Source of the DNA: Escherichia coli
GTDB lineage: Bacteria > Pseudomonadota > Gammaproteobacteria > Enterobacterales > Enterobacteriaceae
Assembly: GCF_013315695.1 (NCBI RefSeq)
Contig: NZ_CP054353.1
DNA length: 64,000 nucleotides
Direction: 5' to 3' (one strand)
The position numbers and the translations under genes were made by a program. Below, piece by piece: positions 1,613-13,816 of the stretch (positions are counted from its first letter, which is position 1; every line of letters begins with the position of its first letter). The notes under the pieces are model-generated. The model was not told the DNA's origin. It saw nothing but the letters and a program-made list of their open reading frames with translations, and made no database searches.

Positions 1613-2884
1613 ATGCAGCACAACACACTACCGAAACACGATCAGAAATTGCCGTTTACACGCTACGACTTCGGCTGGGTTTTATTATGCATAGGCATGG
1701 CGATTGGTGCCGGAACCGTGCTGATGCCAGTACAAATTGGCTTGAAGGGAATTTGGGTATTTATTACCGCAGCGATCATTGCTTATCCTGCCACCTGGGT
1801 AGTGCAGGACATTTATTTAAAAACCCTTTCTGAAAGCGATTCCTGTAATGACTACACCGATATTATCAGTCATTACCTGGGGAAGAACTGGGGAATTTTC
1901 CTCGGGGTTATCTACTTTTTGATGATTATCCACGGGATTTTCATCTACTCTCTCTCCGTGGTTTTCGACAGCGCCTCGTACCTGAAAACCTTCGGTTTAA
2001 CCGATGCCGATCTTTCTCAATCTCTATTTTATAAAGTCGCCATTTTCGCCGTACTGGTGGCAATTGCGTCTGGTGGTGAACGATTACTGTTTAAGATTTC
2101 CGGGCCAATGGTGGTGGTCAAAGTAGGGATTATCGTCGTGTTCGGTTTTGCGATGATCCCGCACTGGAATTTCGCCAATATAACCGCCTTCCCGCAAGCC
2201 TCCGTCTTTTTCCGCGATGTCCTGCTTACCATTCCCTTTTGCTTCTTTTCTGCGGTATTTATTCAGGTACTTAACCCAATGAATATTGCCTATCGTAAAC
2301 GGGAAGCGGATAAAGTACTGGCAACCCGGCTCGCGCTGCGTACCCACCGAATTAGTTATGTCACGCTCATCGCGGTGATCCTGTTTTTTGCCTTTTCGTT
2401 TACCTTCTCAATTAGCCACGAAGAAGCCGTTTCTGCCTTTGAACAAAATATCTCGGCACTGGCACTGGCCGCGCAGGTGATCCCTGGGCATATCATTCAT
2501 ATCACCTCTACGGTGCTGAATATCTTTGCCGTACTGACCGCATTCTTTGGCATTTATCTCGGTTTCCACGAGGCCATTAAAGGCATTATTCTCAATCTGT
2601 TAAGCCGAATTATTGATACCAGGAAAATTAATTCACGCGTGCTGACTCTGGCGATTTGCGCTTTTATCGTCATTACGTTGACGATTTGGGTTTCGTTTCG
2701 TGTATCGGTGCTGGTGTTCTTTCAGTTGGGAAGCCCGTTATATGGCATTGTGTCGTGCCTCATTCCGTTTTTCCTGATCTATAAAGTCGCACAACTGGAA
2801 AAACTTCGCGGATTTAAAGCCTGGCTGATTCTGCTTTACGGCATTTTGCTATGCTTGTCGCCACTGTTGAAGCTGATTGAGTAA
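1613..2884 (+). CDS. yhjV: Inner-membrane amino-acid transporter family protein YhjV (423 aa)
   Basis: ORF 1550..2884; the internal Met at 1613 ([15 protein letters not shown]...) gives the 423-aa length I recall for YhjV; many predicted transmembrane segments. Confidence 0.9.
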
Positions 2885-2913
2885 ACCGGAGCGCACGGCC
2901 CCGGTTTTGTGAG

Positions 2914-3918
2914 TTAACGCTGCGGATTTTCATCCTGATCAACAGCAAAACAAGCTACCAGTTGACCGCCGTAGTCTTTTAGCTGCGGCTGCAACTGGGT
3001 GCAGGGGCCGAAGCGCCGACGACAGCGGGCGTTGAAGGCACAGCCTGGCGGTGGATTGAGCGGGCTTGGCAGTTCACCGGTGAGCTTGATGCGCTCGCGG
3101 CGATCGTCCGGGTTCAGGCGCGGCGTCGCGGAGAGTAGCGCCTGAGTGTACGGATGACGCGGGTTATTGAAGATTTGGTCCTTCGTTCCCTTCTCCACGC
3201 AGCGGCCCAGGTACATCACCATCACTTCATCGGCAATGTGCTCCACAACCGACAGGTCGTGGGAGATAAAGACATAAGAAAGCCCCAACTCCTGCTGCAA
3301 ATCCATCATCAGGTTGAGCACCTGCGCACGCACTGAGACGTCCAGCGCAGAAACCGGCTCATCGGCAATCACCACATCCGGGTCGAGCATCAGACCTCGG
3401 GCAATGGCGATACGCTGACGCTGACCGCCGGAGAACATGTGCGGATAGCGGTCGTAATGCTCGGTTTTCAGGCCGACTTTCGCCATCATCGACAGGGCTT
3501 TTTCCCGACGCTGATCTTTGCTTAAGCTGGTATTAATAAGCAGCGGCTCTTCAAGAATTTGCCCAACTTTTTTACGCGGATTTAGCGAACCATAGGGATT
3601 CTGAAAGACGATCTGGATTTTCTGCCGACGCAACTTCTGCGCCTGCGGATCGTGCTTGAGCAGATCCTGCCCCTGGTAATACAGCTCACCACCGGTGGGC
3701 GTTTCGATCATCGTAAGCAACCGACCGAGGGTCGATTTACCGCAGCCGGATTCACCTACTACCGCCAGCGTTTTGCCACGTTCAAGGTTAAACGAAACGC
3801 CATCCAGCGCCTTCACCAGACGTTCCGGCGCGAACATGCCTTTCTTCACCGGATAATGTTTTTTCAGGTCGATAGCCTGCAACAGCGGTTGTTGCGAGGT
3901 GGCCTCATGCGTACTCAT
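2914..3918 (-). CDS. dppF: Dipeptide ABC transporter ATP-binding protein DppF
   Basis: 334 aa with Walker [13 protein letters not shown] signature and C-terminal oligopeptide-transporter domain; last gene of the dppABCDF order. Confidence 0.95.
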
Positions 3919-4898
3919 AGTGTCGGCCTCCCGGCATCATCAAGTGGGTAATGGCATTTGGACTGACGCCCGTCAGCGAGCATATTCAGCGCCGGTTCTT
4001 CAGCGCGGCATTTGTCAGTGGCGTAGGGGCAGCGCGGGTTAAGCAGGCAGCCGTTCGGACGGTCGTACTTGCCGGGAACAACACCTGGCAACGACGCCAG
4101 ACGTTCTTTATCCTGAGCAAATTCCGGCAGCGCACGCAGCAATGCCTGAGTATACGGGTGACGCGGCGCATGGAAGATGGCGTGCGCATCGCCCGTTTCC
4201 ACCACCTGACCTGCATACATCACGATGATTTTATGTGCCGCTTCCGCCACCAGCGCCAGGTCATGGGTAATTAACACCAGCGCCATGTTCTCTTTCTGCT
4301 GTAGCTCCAGCAGCAGTTCGATAATTTGCGCCTGAATGGTCACGTCCAGCGCAGTGGTTGGTTCATCGGCAATCAGCAGCTTTGGCCGACAGGCAATCGC
4401 CATGGCGATCATCACGCGCTGGCTCATGCCGCCGGAAAGCTGATGCGGGTAAACATCCAGACGCGATGCCGGATCGGGAATACCGACCAGATTCAGCAGG
4501 TCAATCGCTCGCTGACGGCGGGTACTTTTGTTGCCGCCCTGATGCACCTTAATCGCTTCCATAATCTGGAAACCCACGGTGTAGCACGGGTTGAGGCTGG
4601 TCATCGGGTCCTGGAAGATCATCGCCACTTCGGCACCCACCAGGTTGCGGCGCTCTTTTTCCGAGATACGCTGCAAATCCTGACCGTTAAACTCCAGCTT
4701 TTCCGCCATCACGCGGCCCGGATAATCAATCAGCCCCATAATCGCCAGTGAACTGACCGACTTACCAGAGCCGGACTCACCCACAATCCCGACCACTTCG
4801 CCCTGTTTTACGCTGTAGCTGATGCGGTCTACGGCGCGGAACGGTGCGCTTTCGTCGCCGAAATGCACCGATAATTTATCTATATTTAATAACGCCAT
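3915..4898 (-). CDS. dppD: Dipeptide ABC transporter ATP-binding protein DppD
   Basis: 327 aa, Walker A GESGSGKS; 4-bp overlap with dppF. Confidence 0.95.
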
Positions 4899-4908
4899 CT
4901 CGAACCTC

Positions 4909-5811
4909 TTACTGCTTCAGTTTGGGATCGAGCGCGTCACGCAGACCGTCACCCATCAGGTTAAATGCCAGCACCGTCAGCAGGATCGCCAGACCCGGGA
5001 AGGTCACGACCCACCAGGCGCTTTGCGCGAACTGCAACACGTCAGAGAGCATGGTGCCCCACTCCGGCGTTGGCGGCTGCGCCCCCATGCCGAGGAAGCC
5101 AAGGGCGGCCATATCGAGAATAGCGTTAGAGAAACCGAGCGACGCCTGAACAATCAGCGGCGCAAGGCAGTTCGGGAAGATGTTAATAAACATCTGGCGC
5201 ATTGCCCCGGCACCCGCCACGCGAGACGCGGTGACGTAATCGCGGTTAACTTCCACCAGCACGGCGGCGCGGGTTAAGCGCACATAATGCGGCAGCGCAA
5301 CGAAGGTTAGCGCCAGCGCGGCGTTACCAATCGACGGGCCGAAAATCGCCACCAGCACCAGTGCCAGCAGTAGACTTGGCAGCGCCAGCATGATATCGAC
5401 CACGCGCATGATGATGTTATCGACCAGACCGCCAAAGTAACCAGCGATCAGGCCGAGAATAACGCCCATAATCAGCGATAACACCACTACCAGACAGCCA
5501 ACCAGCAGCGACAAGCGCGCGCCGTACATCAGCCGCGACAGCACATCACGCCCCACGTCATCAGTGCCCAGCAAGTGCGCCATGCTGCCGCCTTCCTGCC
5601 AGGCTGGCGGGGCGAGCAGTGCATCGCGGAACTGTTCCGCTGGGTTATAGGGTGCAATCCAGTTGGCAAAGATCGCGATAAACAGCACGATGACGACGTA
5701 AACCAGCCCGACAACCGCGCCTTTGTTGCGTTTAAAATAGTGCCAGAACTCCTGTAACGGGGTCATCGGCACCGGTGCGCTAATCACTTTATTTTCAGTA
5801 ACCTGTGACAT
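4909..5811 (-). CDS. dppC: Dipeptide ABC transporter permease DppC
   Basis: 300-aa polytopic permease in operon position. Confidence 0.95.
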
Positions 5812-5820
5812 GATGTCCCC

Positions 5821-6840
5821 TTACTTCTTATGACGAATACGCGGGTTCACCACGCCGTACAGCAAATCGACCAGCAGGTTGACGAGGATAATCATCGTCG
5901 CCACCAGCAATACGCCGCCCTGCACTACCGGATAATCGCGGCGTTGCAGTGCGTCAATCAACCAGCGCCCCAGACCGGGCCACGAGAAGATGGTTTCAGT
6001 CAGAATCGCCCCCGCCAGCAATGTTCCCACCTGCAGGCCGATAACGGTCACCACCGGCAGCATCGCGTTACGCAGCGCATGGACGATAATCACCCGCATC
6101 CGGGTAAGACCTTTGGCACGCGCGGTGCGGATATAATCTTCGCCCAGCACTTCCAGCATCGAGGAGCGCGTCATACGCACAATGACCGCCAGCGGGATGG
6201 TACCCAGCACAATGGCGGGTAGGATCATATGGGCGACGGCATCGATAAAGTTACCGTCTTCACCCCAGATGGCGGTGTCGATCAGCATAAAACCGGTTAA
6301 CGGATTGGAATCATCGAGGAACACCATGTCGCTCACACGACCGGAGACAGGCGTCAGGTTCCAGTGCACCGAAACCAGCATGATCAGCATCATGCCCCAC
6401 CAGAAAATTGGCATCGAGTAGCCGGTCAGCGCCAGGCCAACCGCTGTGTGATCGAAAATGGAACCACGTTTAACCGCAGCCAGCACACCAACCGGAATAC
6501 CGACTGCCGTCGCAAAAATCATCGCGCAGACGCCAAGTTCCAGCGTGGCCTGAAAGCGCGGCACGAACTCTTCCCATACCGGAATTCGGCTTTTCATGGA
6601 AATGCCTAAATCACCGTGCATTACGCCCCAAATGTAATGGAGATACTGCTGCCACATCGGTTTATCTAAGCCGAGTTCAGCCAGCAATTGTGCGTGACGC
6701 TCTGGGGAGATCCCACGCTCGCCCGCCATGATCATCACCGGATCGCCCGGGATCATGTGGACAAAGGCAAATGTGAGAAGGGTAATACCGATAAACGTGG
6801 GGATGACGAGTCCCAAACGTCGGAGAATAAACTGCAACAT
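5821..6840 (-). CDS. dppB: Dipeptide ABC transporter permease DppB
   Basis: 339-aa permease in operon position. Confidence 0.95.
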   Translation of the reverse strand: MLQFILRRLGLVIPTFIGITLLTFAFVHMIPGDPVMIMAGERGISPERHAQLLAELGLDKPMWQQYLHYIWGVMHGDLGISMKSRIPVWEEFVPRFQATLELGVCAMIFATAVGIPVGVLAAVKRGSIFDHTAVGLALTGYSMPIFWWGMMLIMLVSVHWNLTPVSGRVSDMVFLDDSNPLTGFMLIDTAIWGEDGNFIDAVAHMILPAIVLGTIPLAVIVRMTRSSMLEVLGEDYIRTARAKGLTRMRVIIVHALRNAMLPVVTVIGLQVGTLLAGAILTETIFSWPGLGRWLIDALQRRDYPVVQGGVLLVATMIILVNLLVDLLYGVVNPRIRHKK

Positions 6841-6899
6841 AACCCGGATTCTCTATAATGACCCGCAGCCTGGAACTGCGTGTCTGTATTGCTCACAAA

Positions 6900-6985
6900 T
6901 CAATTCCCGCCCTTGTGGGACAGGGAATGAAGTATTGCTGCCGGATGGCGCTGCACGCAGAGGCACAGCGCCACCGGGTATGGCT
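6900..6985. repeat. REP-like palindromic element in the dppA-dppB intergenic region
   Basis: GCCGGATGGCGCTGCACGC... REP-type GC-rich palindrome immediately 3' of dppA. Confidence 0.6.
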
Positions 6986-6990
6986 TTTAA

Positions 6991-8598
6991 TTATTCGATA
7001 GAGACATTTTCGAAGTGATGTTTGCCTAATGGATCAACCACATAGCCTTTAACTTCTTTGCGTACCGGTTCAAACACGGTGGAGTGAGCGATGATCAGTG
7101 CCGGAGCCTGATCGTGCATCACGACCTGTGCTTGTTTGTACAGTTCAACACGTTTATTGTGGTCGTCGGTAGCACGCGCCGGTTGAATCAGATCTTCAAA
7201 CGGTTTGTAGCACCATTTTGAGTAGTTGGAGCCTTGTTCAGAGGCGGCGCAGCTGAACAGGGTGGCGAAGAAGTTATCCGGATCCCCGTTATCGCCAGTC
7301 CAGCCCATCATTACCGTCTGATGCTCGCCATCTTTCGCACGCTTGAGGTACTCACCCCATTCGTAGGTGACGATTTTGGCCTGCACGCCGACTTTCGCCC
7401 AGTCTGCCTGAATCATCTCCGCCATGCGGCGAGCGTTCGGGTTATACGGACGTTGTACCGGCATTGCCCACAAGTCGATGGAGAAACCTTTTTCCAGACC
7501 CGCTTCTTTCAGCAAGGCTTTCGCTTTTTCAGGATCGTAAGTGTAGTCCTGAACATCGTCGTTATAGCCCCACATGGTTGGCGGGATCAGGTTTTTCGCT
7601 GATACGCCCGCGCCCTGATAAACCGCTTTGATGATCGCGTCTTTGTTCACCGCGTAGGTCAGAGCCTGGCGAACTTTCACGTCATCGAGTGGTTTTTTCT
7701 GCACGTTATACGAGAGATAACCGACGTTCAGCCCCGGCATTTCCATCAGGTTGATGGATTTATCCTGCTTCATGCGGGCGATATCTGCCGGGTTCGGGTA
7801 CGGCATCACCTGGCATTCGTTCTTCTGCAATTTCGCATAACGCACGGAAGCGTCAGGAGTAATAGAGAAGACCAGCGTATCGATCTTCGGTTTGGTGCCC
7901 CAGTAGCCATCAAACGCTTTATAGCGAATACGGGAATCTTTCTGGTACTGCTGTAACTGGAACGGGCCGGTACCGATTGGGTTGAGGTCCAGTTTTTCCG
8001 GTGTACCGGCTTTCATCATCGCGTCAGCATATTCTTTTGACAGAATAGAGGCGAAGTCCATTGCCAGGTCAGCAAGGAACGGCGCTTCCGGGCGAGTCAG
8101 CACGAACTGAACGGTGTTATCGTCCACCTTTTTCACTTCGCTGATCAGCTCCGGTAAGCCCATGCCTTCGAAGTATTCGTAGCTGCCGCCAGAAACTTTA
8201 TGGTACGGGTTTTGCGCGTTTTTCTGACGATCGAACGAGAACACTACATCATCGGCATTCAGTTCGCGCGTCGGTTTGAATTCTTTATTGTCGTGCCACT
8301 TCACACCTTTACGCAGATGGAAGGTATAGGTTTTACCGTCTTCGCTGACTTCCCACTTTTCAGCGAGGCCCGGAATCACTTCAGTGGTGCCGATTTTAAA
8401 TTCAACCAGGCGGTTATAAAGCGGTACGGAAGAGGCGTCATAGGTGGTGCCGGAGGTAAACAGCTGCGGGTTAAACCCTTCCGGAGATCCTTCTGAGCAA
8501 TAAACCAGAGTTTTAGCCTGAACACTTGCTGCGACGGTCATAGCCACCAGGCTGAGACCAAGCTTCAGCATCCCTGACTTTTTCAAGGAAATACGCAT
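6991..8598 (-). CDS. dppA: Periplasmic dipeptide-binding protein DppA
   Basis: 535 aa with N-terminal signal peptide; family 5 solute-binding protein at the head of the dpp operon. Confidence 0.95.
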   Translation of the reverse strand: MRISLKKSGMLKLGLSLVAMTVAASVQAKTLVYCSEGSPEGFNPQLFTSGTTYDASSVPLYNRLVEFKIGTTEVIPGLAEKWEVSEDGKTYTFHLRKGVKWHDNKEFKPTRELNADDVVFSFDRQKNAQNPYHKVSGGSYEYFEGMGLPELISEVKKVDDNTVQFVLTRPEAPFLADLAMDFASILSKEYADAMMKAGTPEKLDLNPIGTGPFQLQQYQKDSRIRYKAFDGYWGTKPKIDTLVFSITPDASVRYAKLQKNECQVMPYPNPADIARMKQDKSINLMEMPGLNVGYLSYNVQKKPLDDVKVRQALTYAVNKDAIIKAVYQGAGVSAKNLIPPTMWGYNDDVQDYTYDPEKAKALLKEAGLEKGFSIDLWAMPVQRPYNPNARRMAEMIQADWAKVGVQAKIVTYEWGEYLKRAKDGEHQTVMMGWTGDNGDPDNFFATLFSCAASEQGSNYSKWCYKPFEDLIQPARATDDHNKRVELYKQAQVVMHDQAPALIIAHSTVFEPVRKEVKGYVVDPLGKHHFENVSIE

Positions 8599-11200: not shown

Positions 11201-11523
11201 GCAAACAAACCCTGGACAAACAGGTGATAACACCCTGCTTAGCGGCTTTTCAGGCCCGGCAGGGGAAAAGTGCGGAGGTAGTCAGATAAGTAAAATCTAC
11301 ACGCGCGAATAAGTAGACCACAGCAAAGGGAAAAAGTGTGGGGAAAGAGTGTGCATGAAGCACAAATTTACAAAAATGCAAGTTTGAAAAGAGACTTTAG
11401 CGTTACAAAAAGCAGTAAAAAGGGCCAGTTAACTGGCCCAAATTTTACGCGTCATTGTTTATACATTGCGTTGAAGCGTTTGATTCACACTAAGGCTAAA
11501 GCCCAGTAGCTCGCGGCAGATGA

Positions 11524-12732
11524 TTAAAGGGAGCCATGCGCCTCACGCAACATTTTCTGCTCTGGCTGACGAATCGTCGTAGAGAGCGCCAGTGACAGAA
11601 TCAGCAGGGCGAAAATCACGTAGAAGGTCACATAGAAGCCGCCAAACAGTGAGGCGATAATCGACCCACAAATGCTGCCGATACCGAAACCGAGATAAAT
11701 CACACCGTAGTTTTTCGCCAGGTTATTGAGGCCGAAGAACTCACTGACCAGTGACGGGAACACCGTGATAGTGCCGCCAAAGTTAAATGCCACGCAGGCA
11801 ATCGCTGCAAAGAACGTCACTGCATTCAATGGTGCAAACAGCAGGGCCGCCATACCCACCAGCGATATCACCTGACCAATGGTGATAACACGGATACGGG
11901 CGATTTTGTCAGACAGAATGCCCAGCACCAGACGACCAGAAAGGTTGGCGATGGAAATAACCGTCACAGCATTGGCTGCGGAAATTGCATCAAGATGCGC
12001 CAGACTTTGAGCGATATCTTTCGCTACACCAATCACATACAGACCACTCATGCACGCAGTCAGGAACATAACCGCTAACATCCAGTACTGCGGTTTACGC
12101 ATCGACTCTGCCAGGGTGTAGTCCTTCTCCACCACACCATTGCTGGTTTTCACTTCCTGCTTCGGCGCATCTTTCATTAACGTTGCGCCAAAGACAATCA
12201 TCACCAGTACAATCGCGCCCCAAATAACAAAGGTTTTTTCCAGACCCACCGTTTCGAGCAGGTGCGTGTCGATAAATTTAAAACCCAGGCTGCCCAGACC
12301 ATAAGAACCGATAGCAAAAGCAGAGATAAGTCCCTTACGCTCCGGAAACCACTTCACGCAGTTAGAGAGCGTCAACAGGTAACCCGCACCATCCGCCAGA
12401 CCAACCAACACACCGGCGCTTAACCACAGCATCATCAGGTTGTTGGAATGTGCTGTCAGGAAGAAACCTAATCCCAGCAAAATGCCGGAAGCCATAGTGA
12501 CGCGTTTAACACCAAAACGTTCCTGCAATTTGCCCGCAACAGAAGATGAAATTGCCAGCCCCAGACTTAACAAGCCGAAAGAGAAAGCAACCTGGCTTAC
12601 AGGAGCCCCCAGCTTGGCAGAAAGCGCACCGTTAAACAGACTCCAGGTATAAACCGACCCCAGAGCAAACTGGGTAATGATAGTACCGATGAGTGTCAGC
12701 CAGCGAGTACGCTGATAATTTGAAGGTGTCAT
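11524..12732 (-). CDS. yhjX: MFS transporter YhjX (oxalate/formate antiporter family)
   Basis: ORF 11524..12777; Met at MTPSNYQRTRW gives 402 aa; 12-TM MFS topology. Confidence 0.9.
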   Translation of the reverse strand: MTPSNYQRTRWLTLIGTIITQFALGSVYTWSLFNGALSAKLGAPVSQVAFSFGLLSLGLAISSSVAGKLQERFGVKRVTMASGILLGLGFFLTAHSNNLMMLWLSAGVLVGLADGAGYLLTLSNCVKWFPERKGLISAFAIGSYGLGSLGFKFIDTHLLETVGLEKTFVIWGAIVLVMIVFGATLMKDAPKQEVKTSNGVVEKDYTLAESMRKPQYWMLAVMFLTACMSGLYVIGVAKDIAQSLAHLDAISAANAVTVISIANLSGRLVLGILSDKIARIRVITIGQVISLVGMAALLFAPLNAVTFFAAIACVAFNFGGTITVFPSLVSEFFGLNNLAKNYGVIYLGFGIGSICGSIIASLFGGFYVTFYVIFALLILSLALSTTIRQPEQKMLREAHGSL

Positions 12733-12815
12733 GGCAGTATTCCTGCAGTAATAAAAAGGAAAAATCTCTGCTGACAACCATAACGAAGTGCGCTTTATGC
12801 CTGGGGAAAAACGGC

Positions 12816-12846
12816 ATGAAATGCCATCAGAACGGAATGAAATGCA
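12816..12846 (-). promoter_or_regulatory. Probable YpdB (LytTR-type response regulator) binding site in the yhjX promoter
   Basis: Minus strand reads TGCATTTCAT-N11-GGCATTTCAT, a direct repeat matching the GGCATTTCAT-N11-GGCATTTCAT motif I recall for YpdB at yhjX. Confidence 0.6.
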
Positions 12847-12960
12847 TTAGTTCAGGAATGAATGACTCGACAATTATTCGCCAAATTTATTATTTAGTAA
12901 GTTAGTCCCCACTATCGCCACATTAGTTGTTATTTATGGGTTTCAATTGTATCTATAACG

Positions 12961-13659
12961 TTAAAATCTGGCACTAACCCCCATCGTATACAGATAGTCG
13001 CTATTGTTAGTGGTATTTTCTGCCTGAGATAGCGCCGCATAGGCAGCAATATTTTGATTGAGCAACATATCAGCGCCTACGGTGACATCCAGCCAGTTGC
13101 CGTTCTGGTTTGTCGCCGTCATCCGGCTCAGGCCTGATTGCGCCTTCCAGATATTCTCGCCAAATTGCTGGTTATAGCTGATTTGCGCCCAGGGTCGGAG
13201 ATCGCCAAGCCGGGAGTCAACACGCCAGCCTAAAGTACTCACGCTGGCATGCCATAACGGATCGGTCAGCGTGGTAGTACTGTCGCCAAACTCGTTATAC
13301 ATCGAGGTGGTTGTGCCATCGTAATGTAATGCCGCGACCGGACCGGTTGTAACCTGTTGATATAAAGGAAAATTCCACCCCATACTCATACTACTGGTGA
13401 CATCCACAGGGGTTTCTTCCGCCAGATTGACTTCCAGTCCCAGCGCCCTTTGGCTACTTTGAATACGTTGCGACAAAATATCGTTGTAATCAGGTTGATG
13501 ATCGCTATCCCAGGTGTAACGCTCTGTGGAATGTCCGGGTTGCGTATCAACGATATATTCTTGTTGCCAGGCGTAAGCTGTGTTGAGAAAAAAGGCACTG
13601 ATTACCACGCTCACCAGCAGGCTTAGCTGCCAGCGACCACCGCTTTTTTTTATGATCAT
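12961..13659 (-). CDS. yhjY: YhjY, predicted outer-membrane beta-barrel (autotransporter-like) protein
   Basis: Signal peptide and C-terminal aromatic residue typical of beta-barrel proteins; synteny. Start codon chosen at the MIIKK Met. Confidence 0.8.
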   Translation of the reverse strand: MIIKKSGGRWQLSLLVSVVISAFFLNTAYAWQQEYIVDTQPGHSTERYTWDSDHQPDYNDILSQRIQSSQRALGLEVNLAEETPVDVTSSMSMGWNFPLYQQVTTGPVAALHYDGTTTSMYNEFGDSTTTLTDPLWHASVSTLGWRVDSRLGDLRPWAQISYNQQFGENIWKAQSGLSRMTATNQNGNWLDVTVGADMLLNQNIAAYAALSQAENTTNNSDYLYTMGVSARF

Positions 13660-13816
13660 TAACACGACTCCAGGGAAGAGCCGAATTCGGCAATATTATT
13701 GTCATTGTATGAAGGATATCGGGCATAGTAGCCCTGTATTAAATATTGACTTTTTCACCGATGCGTCAAGAAAAGCGGCTGAAATTTTTACGATCGGGTA
13801 CATAGCGAGGGAAAGT

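Follow-up and report, generated by a model that had tools for sequence, protein, structure and literature searches.

The direct repeat upstream of yhjX in the window (the complete 64-kb stretch of E. coli DNA which was analysed here) is very probably the already published YpdB operator of this gene, present in a common natural one-base variant, a reading based on alignment with the K-12 promoter. On the minus strand the site reads TGCATTTCAT-TCCGTTCTGAT-GGCATTTCAT from 12846 to 12816, which is the reverse complement of window positions 12816-12846 (ATGAAATGCC ATCAGAACGGA ATGAAATGCA on the plus strand). The parts of the site and the gene downstream of it are:

12837-12846, minus strand: box A, the upstream repeat (TGCATTTCAT), the published high-affinity, nucleating YpdB site (assignment of A and B from Table 1 of Behr 2016)
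12826-12836, minus strand: spacer of 11 nt (TCCGTTCTGAT) between the two 10-nt repeats
12816-12825, minus strand: box B, the promoter-proximal repeat (GGCATTTCAT), the published low-affinity YpdB site, identical to K-12
11524-12732, minus strand: yhjX coding sequence (402 aa, 1,209 nt, ATG at 12732), from the RefSeq annotation of genomes which are 100% identical over window positions 11400-13700

Counted from the A of the yhjX ATG, the repeat pair occupies positions -114 to -84, within the 228 bp which separate yhjY from yhjX; it is on the coding strand of yhjX and so lies upstream of an intact orthologue of this gene on the same strand; yhjY is also encoded on the minus strand and ends at 12961 (RefSeq annotation). 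The initial annotation, made from the sequence alone, had placed the repeat TGCATTTCAT-N11-GGCATTTCAT on the yhjX coding strand at about 85-115 bp upstream of the start codon, and both details agree with our analysis, as the letters are exactly those of the window and the computed distance is 84-114 nt. The region from 11400 to 13700 is 100% identical in five complete genomes, and at least 80% of it is present in 5,416 of the 5,426 complete E. coli genomes.

Correspondence with the K-12 YpdB site

In E. coli K-12 the YpdB operator of the yhjX promoter has been described as a direct repeat of GGCATTTCAT with an 11-bp spacer, and an oligonucleotide used in that study covers all DNase I-protected nucleotides of the promoter (Behr 2016, PMC4847170). 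The native 58 nt of this protected fragment align with window positions 12812-12869 on the minus strand, with 56/58 bases identical. Gene, strand and position are the same as for the K-12 YpdB (PyrR) site described by Behr 2016 (PMC4847170), as are all 11 spacer bases, the whole of box B and 19/20 of the repeat bases, whereas two bases of the window differ, namely a T at 12846 (K-12: G), the first position of box A, and an A at 12867 (K-12: C), in the flank upstream and within the third box described below. The match to the YpdB recognition motif, which the initial annotation had proposed, is borne out by these 56 bases, and the published footprint, with which it had suggested comparing the repeat, maps to 12812-12869 and thus not to a different sequence. 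It had also transcribed the initial T of the upstream repeat correctly, but without flagging the T/G difference from K-12. The original footprint and mutagenesis of the YpdB site at yhjX are reportedly those of Fried et al. 2013.

The layout of two 10-nt repeats with an 11-nt spacer and a 21-bp period fits the generic definition of an operator for LytTR response regulators, i.e. two direct repeats of 9-11 nt which are 11-13 nt apart (Behr 2016, PMC4847170). When both strands were searched, the pattern KGCATTTCAT-N11-KGCATTTCAT occurred only once in the 64 kb, and it was found in 0/100 dinucleotide-preserving shuffles of the window. An independent repeat search returned the same pair as a 15-nt direct repeat (93% identical), with a start-to-start distance of 21 bp.

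For the K-12 allele, the literature evidence consists of YpdB binding in vitro and of pyruvate- and YpdB-dependent induction (Behr 2016, PMC4847170). Phospho-YpdB binds the high-affinity site A first (KD 1.2 nM, slow on and off) and then cooperatively site B (KD 21 nM, fast on and off), which is occupied only after A; inactivation of A abolishes all binding, binding at A remains when B is inactivated, and flanking bases are reported to affect expression in vivo (Behr 2016, PMC4847170). Occupied B was proposed to recruit RNA polymerase, with fast release from B resulting in pulsed yhjX expression (PMC4847170). The site in the window is expected to work like the K-12 allele, and the same mechanism can be proposed here because the regulator is identical in the closest genome examined, 56/58 footprint bases are shared, position 1 is naturally G or T, and the identical promoter of UTI89 is induced in vivo (see below). 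Phosphorylated YpdB would thus first occupy the distal box A, from there it would enable binding of another monomer at the proximal box B, which with the 21-bp period is on the same helix face, and occupation of box B would recruit RNA polymerase, with fast release from B giving expression of the YhjX transporter in pulses at high external pyruvate.

Box structure and promoter elements in the Enterobacteriaceae

One genome per species was searched for the pattern GCATTTCAT-N12-GCATTTCAT, with position 1 of the boxes left free, and this gave at least 120 loci. As the exact 9-bp core was demanded in both boxes, this core is fixed by the pattern, the scan is biased towards perfect sites and the species count is a lower bound. 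Among the matches listed (at least 120), a YhjX homologue directly follows on the same strand at 33 loci or more, of which at least 27 are from other Enterobacteriaceae. For about 80 of the 120 matches listed, no yhjX or LytS/LytTR genes are in the vicinity, and these appear to be chance occurrences. That yhjX promoters of gamma-proteobacteria share the YpdB motif has been reported previously, together with targets adjacent to the two-component system in some genera (Behr 2017, PMC5552118).

Within the matches listed from the 27 or more other Enterobacteriaceae, conservation extends beyond the repeats, since the TCC behind box A and the GCC behind box B are invariant or nearly so; in the spacer, the first three bases (TCC) alone are conserved across genera, and the other eight vary. 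Counting the conserved TCC/GCC, each box comprises 13 nt (KGCATTTCATKCC), and the two copies are separated by a variable gap of 8 nt. For box A this conserved unit reaches 12834, whereas the conserved extension of box B (GCC-GTTTT) reaches 12808, with KTTTT following box B across species in the matches listed.

These comparisons also bear on the possibility that the duplication arose by chance or lacks a function, or that an unrelated factor binds the repeat. Short repeats are generally frequent in AT-rich intergenic DNA, but the pattern was absent from all 100 shuffled windows, and the TCC/GCC and KTTTT flanks conserved in at least 27 other Enterobacteriaceae lie outside the search pattern. 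Furthermore, in the same species the distance from box B to the ATG is nearly constant (73-88 nt among the matches listed), and the repeat coincides with the published footprint. A chance repeat was rejected on the basis of the shuffles, the conserved flanks and the overlap with the footprint, and we consider such an origin extremely improbable.

Upstream of box A and between box B and the start codon, conservation and phasing point to further candidate elements of the promoter:

12855-12867, minus strand: third, degenerate box (AGTCATTCATTCC), exactly 21 bp upstream of box A and inside the DNase I-protected fragment
12777-12782, minus strand: candidate -10 hexamer TATGGT (TAnnnT), proposed from conservation
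12768-12771, minus strand: conserved GCAG, 6-9 nt downstream of the candidate -10, the putative transcription start region
12741-12746, minus strand: conserved Shine-Dalgarno region GCAGGA, 9-14 nt upstream of the ATG

The third box matches KGCATTTCATKCC at 9/13 positions and is conserved as G[T/C]CATTCAT[T/A]CC in 29 enterobacterial yhjX promoters from the matches listed. It may represent a third YpdB contact, in which case the number of phased YpdB-type boxes at yhjX would be three and not two. The Paenibacillus loci described below also have a 9/13 match at the phase of the third box.

With regard to the candidate -10 box, the first two bases (TA) do not vary, and at least 90% of the 29 enterobacterial promoters (matches listed) have the final T. 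We infer a -10 box at 12782-12777 and a transcription start at approximately 12770, which would put the box centres near -49, -70 and -91. A consensus σ70 scan of 12600-13100 detected neither a promoter from the site down to the ATG nor a recognisable -35, which fits an activator-dependent promoter, and a scan of the same region for terminators gave none after yhjY. A search of the yhjX literature for a mapped transcription start site or CsrA data gave nothing useful. The spacer also contains a 14-nt inverted repeat (12739-12752 and 12846-12859, 86% complementary), in which the 5'-UTR/Shine-Dalgarno region pairs with the sequence just upstream of box A, and which is probably due to chance. A palindrome around CTGCAG is present at 12738-12753, and other two-copy short repeats in the yhjY-yhjX spacer look like chance as well.

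Alleles of box A and signal input to the operator

Of about 5,420 complete E. coli genomes, 1,626 carry the exact 70 bp of the window around the site and 3,570 carry the K-12 version; the T allele of the window and the G allele of K-12 are the two major alleles of E. coli. The whole 228-bp yhjY-yhjX spacer of the window is identical to that of UTI89 (ST95) and of one ST131 strain. According to the UTI89 study (PMC9765748), the native yhjX transcript shows an acid- and pyruvate-induced surge which is absent in a btsS ypdB double mutant; of the assays in that study, RT-qPCR alone addresses the native yhjX allele, as the lux reporter may carry the K-12 promoter. The T allele therefore appears functional, with the double mutant as the in vivo basis. 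At position 1 there is a G in 19 and a T in 8 of the box A sequences, and a G in 8 and a T in 19 of the box B sequences, from the 27 or more other Enterobacteriaceae yhjX promoters among the matches listed; this natural G/T variation in both boxes leads us to expect that the T-allele site functions alike. A natural disruption of the operator is seen in E. coli DX6, where IS1 has inserted into box B of the yhjX promoter (NZ_CP126345, 179140-179592).

The genes ypdA and ypdB are outside the 64-kb window, and are more than 1 Mb away from yhjX in E. coli. Conservation of the YpdA/YpdB to yhjX circuit, as proposed by the initial annotation, thus cannot be read from the window, but indirect evidence makes it probable: among 5,426 complete E. 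coli genomes, 5,414 have ypdAB at a coverage of 80% or more, and both genes are intact in strain MS 21-1. The latter and MSB1_4I gave the best matches over 25 kb (99.9% identical). In MS 21-1, ypdA and ypdB have 565 and 244 codons, respectively, and its YpdB is 100% identical to that of K-12. A Mu-like prophage, itself containing ISEc10, splits fryA directly beside ypdC-ypdB-ypdA in this strain (NZ_CP146670, approximately 1573.4-1613.6 kb), and an ISEc10 element (IS21-like) is also present between its yhjY and tag genes (5431-7682 of its locus, corresponding to window position ~13830), whereas the window lacks the 500-aa istA open reading frame there. In the current K-12 record ypdA and ypdB are named pyrS and pyrR, while genomes annotated with PGAP keep the names ypdA and ypdB.

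Two readings in which the circuit of this lineage differs from that of K-12 were considered. One is that YpdB binds box A, the nucleating site, with a measurably different affinity when position 1 is T rather than G. Strains with the T allele, which make up about 30% of the E. coli sequenced and include ST131 and ST95/UTI89, would then differ in the pyruvate threshold or pulse shape of yhjX expression. We regard this as unlikely. Box A is the high-affinity site which is occupied first and without which all binding is lost, both alleles are frequent and appear to be associated with lineages, and flanking bases are reported to affect expression in vivo. Against this, position 1 is either G or T across the 27 or more genera and species next to a (near-)invariant TCC/GCC, which suggests tolerance of K; box B starts with an A (AGCATTTCAT) in E. 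coli CU37RT-2, showing that position 1 varies within E. coli at both boxes; and yhjX was strongly induced from the identical promoter in UTI89, according to the study of this strain.

The other reading concerns the sensor, and holds that the non-cognate kinase BtsS, acting via YpdB, is the main input to the operator in this lineage instead of YpdA. This would leave the cis element unchanged and make the label 'YpdA/YpdB circuit' incomplete. The UTI89 study attributes yhjX induction to BtsS with the non-cognate regulator YpdB (PMC9765748), from a promoter identical to that of the window. The 'YpdA to YpdB' part of the initial annotation may therefore be an oversimplification for this lineage, as BtsS is the sensor reported to feed YpdB in UTI89. 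Conversely, the work in K-12 assigned yhjX induction to YpdA/YpdB (PMC4847170, PMC5552118), ypdA is intact beside ypdB in MS 21-1, the closest genome examined, and the promoter is without the ACCRCTYA repeats of the BtsR type. On balance a main role of BtsS is possible although doubtful, and with no BtsR-type motif in the promoter any cross-talk would take place at the level of the kinases, with the identity of the DNA element as a YpdB operator unchanged.

An operator of the BtsR type itself was excluded, since ACCRCTYA is absent from the intergenic region 12733-12960. The nearest occurrence is a single copy inside the yhjX coding sequence at 12043, and the nine occurrences in the window are not above chance (5.9 expected). 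The BtsR (YehT) operator of btsT/yjiY resembles the site described here in that it is bound by a paralogous LytTR regulator of the same pyruvate-sensing network and consists of a direct repeat with a spacer of approximately 13 nt, but its motif, ACC[G/A]CT[C/T]A, is absent as a repeat from the yhjX promoter.

Related operators and occurrence beyond the enterics

YhjX is an MFS transporter of the oxalate/formate antiporter family (Pfam MFS_1; TIGR00890, 472 bits), and scores 345 bits with the NF049980 SfMCT 'L-lactate MFS transporter' equivalog model (cutoff 320). There is a mismatch in its naming, as RefSeq uses 'L-lactate MFS transporter' and the literature refers to a putative pyruvate transporter.

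The LytT site of the B. subtilis pftAB operon consists of two 13-nt boxes which are 8 nt apart, and was described as 'similar' to the YpdB site (Charbonnier 2017, PMC5626966). When compared by description, it has the same 13+8 layout (21-bp period) as the KGCATTTCATKCC boxes of the window, and is likewise located upstream of a pyruvate transporter operon with a LytS/LytTR pair in control; both of its boxes are required (PMC5626966). The two systems differ in that the B. subtilis target is the LrgAB-type PftAB, adjoining lytST, whereas the target in E. coli is an MFS transporter which is more than 1 Mb from ypdAB. Operators of the AgrA type (P2/P3 of S. aureus) share the LytTR architecture of two 9-11-nt direct repeats, 11-13 nt apart, just upstream of a weak -35 (PMC4847170), but their sequence motif, regulator and physiology are all unrelated.

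Outside the enterics, a contiguous cassette of ypdA-ypdB, a GCATTTCAT pair and yhjX is present in at least five Paenibacillus species and in Chromobacterium subtsugae (loci L032, at 2214-6074, L030, L036, L082, L120 and L114), although the YhjX-like MFS gene of C. subtsugae is cut by the end of the locus. In these cassettes YpdA and YpdB are 56-63% identical to the E. coli proteins, and YhjX is 46-48% identical. The contiguous arrangement in Paenibacillus and Chromobacterium, as opposed to the distance of more than 1 Mb in E. coli, suggests that the ypdA-ypdB-site-yhjX module has moved between phyla as a unit. With Romboutsia and Clostridium arbusti included, the YpdA/YpdB homologues beside the pair are 52-63% identical to those of E. 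coli. In Romboutsia (L071) the pair is downstream of the ypdA-ypdB homologues and upstream of a CstA-family gene, and in C. arbusti (L021, 5298-5327) it is downstream of a ypdB homologue (5384-6112, minus strand) without a same-strand gene beyond it; the next open reading frame past the pair is convergent and without an assigned function, and the pair may be an orphaned site. Pairs beside LytS/LytTR genes with only 32-35% identity are present in a Spirochaeta metagenome-assembled genome (L055), upstream of a CstA-family gene, and in at least two Limosilactobacillus species (L024, L091), upstream of LrgA and LrgB. Taken together, the CstA-family, LrgA+LrgB and YhjX-like targets indicate that one type of operator serves three kinds of putative pyruvate transporters. 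We dropped the occurrence of the operator across phyla as a new result, since its conservation and its likeness to the LytT site have already been reported (Behr 2017, PMC5552118; Charbonnier 2017, PMC5626966).

The feature is thus already known, and its earlier interpretation is correct but ordinary. What is new, and only of modest use, is that KGCATTTCAT-KCC describes the box better than the textbook motif GGCATTTCAT, with 13 nt per box and a gap of 8 nt, comparable to B. subtilis LytT; T is the first base of the nucleating site in approximately one-third of sequenced E. coli. It may be speculated, although we attach a low probability to this, that three phased boxes together with the lineage-specific G/T polymorphism make the threshold or the pulse dynamics of yhjX induction by pyruvate differ between lineages. 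The main value of the finding is in correct annotation: the cis element found in this genome is the characterised one of the YpdB-to-yhjX pathway for pyruvate sensing, a pathway with reported links to nutrient scavenging, to acid and serine responses in UPEC, and to adaptive gentamicin tolerance.
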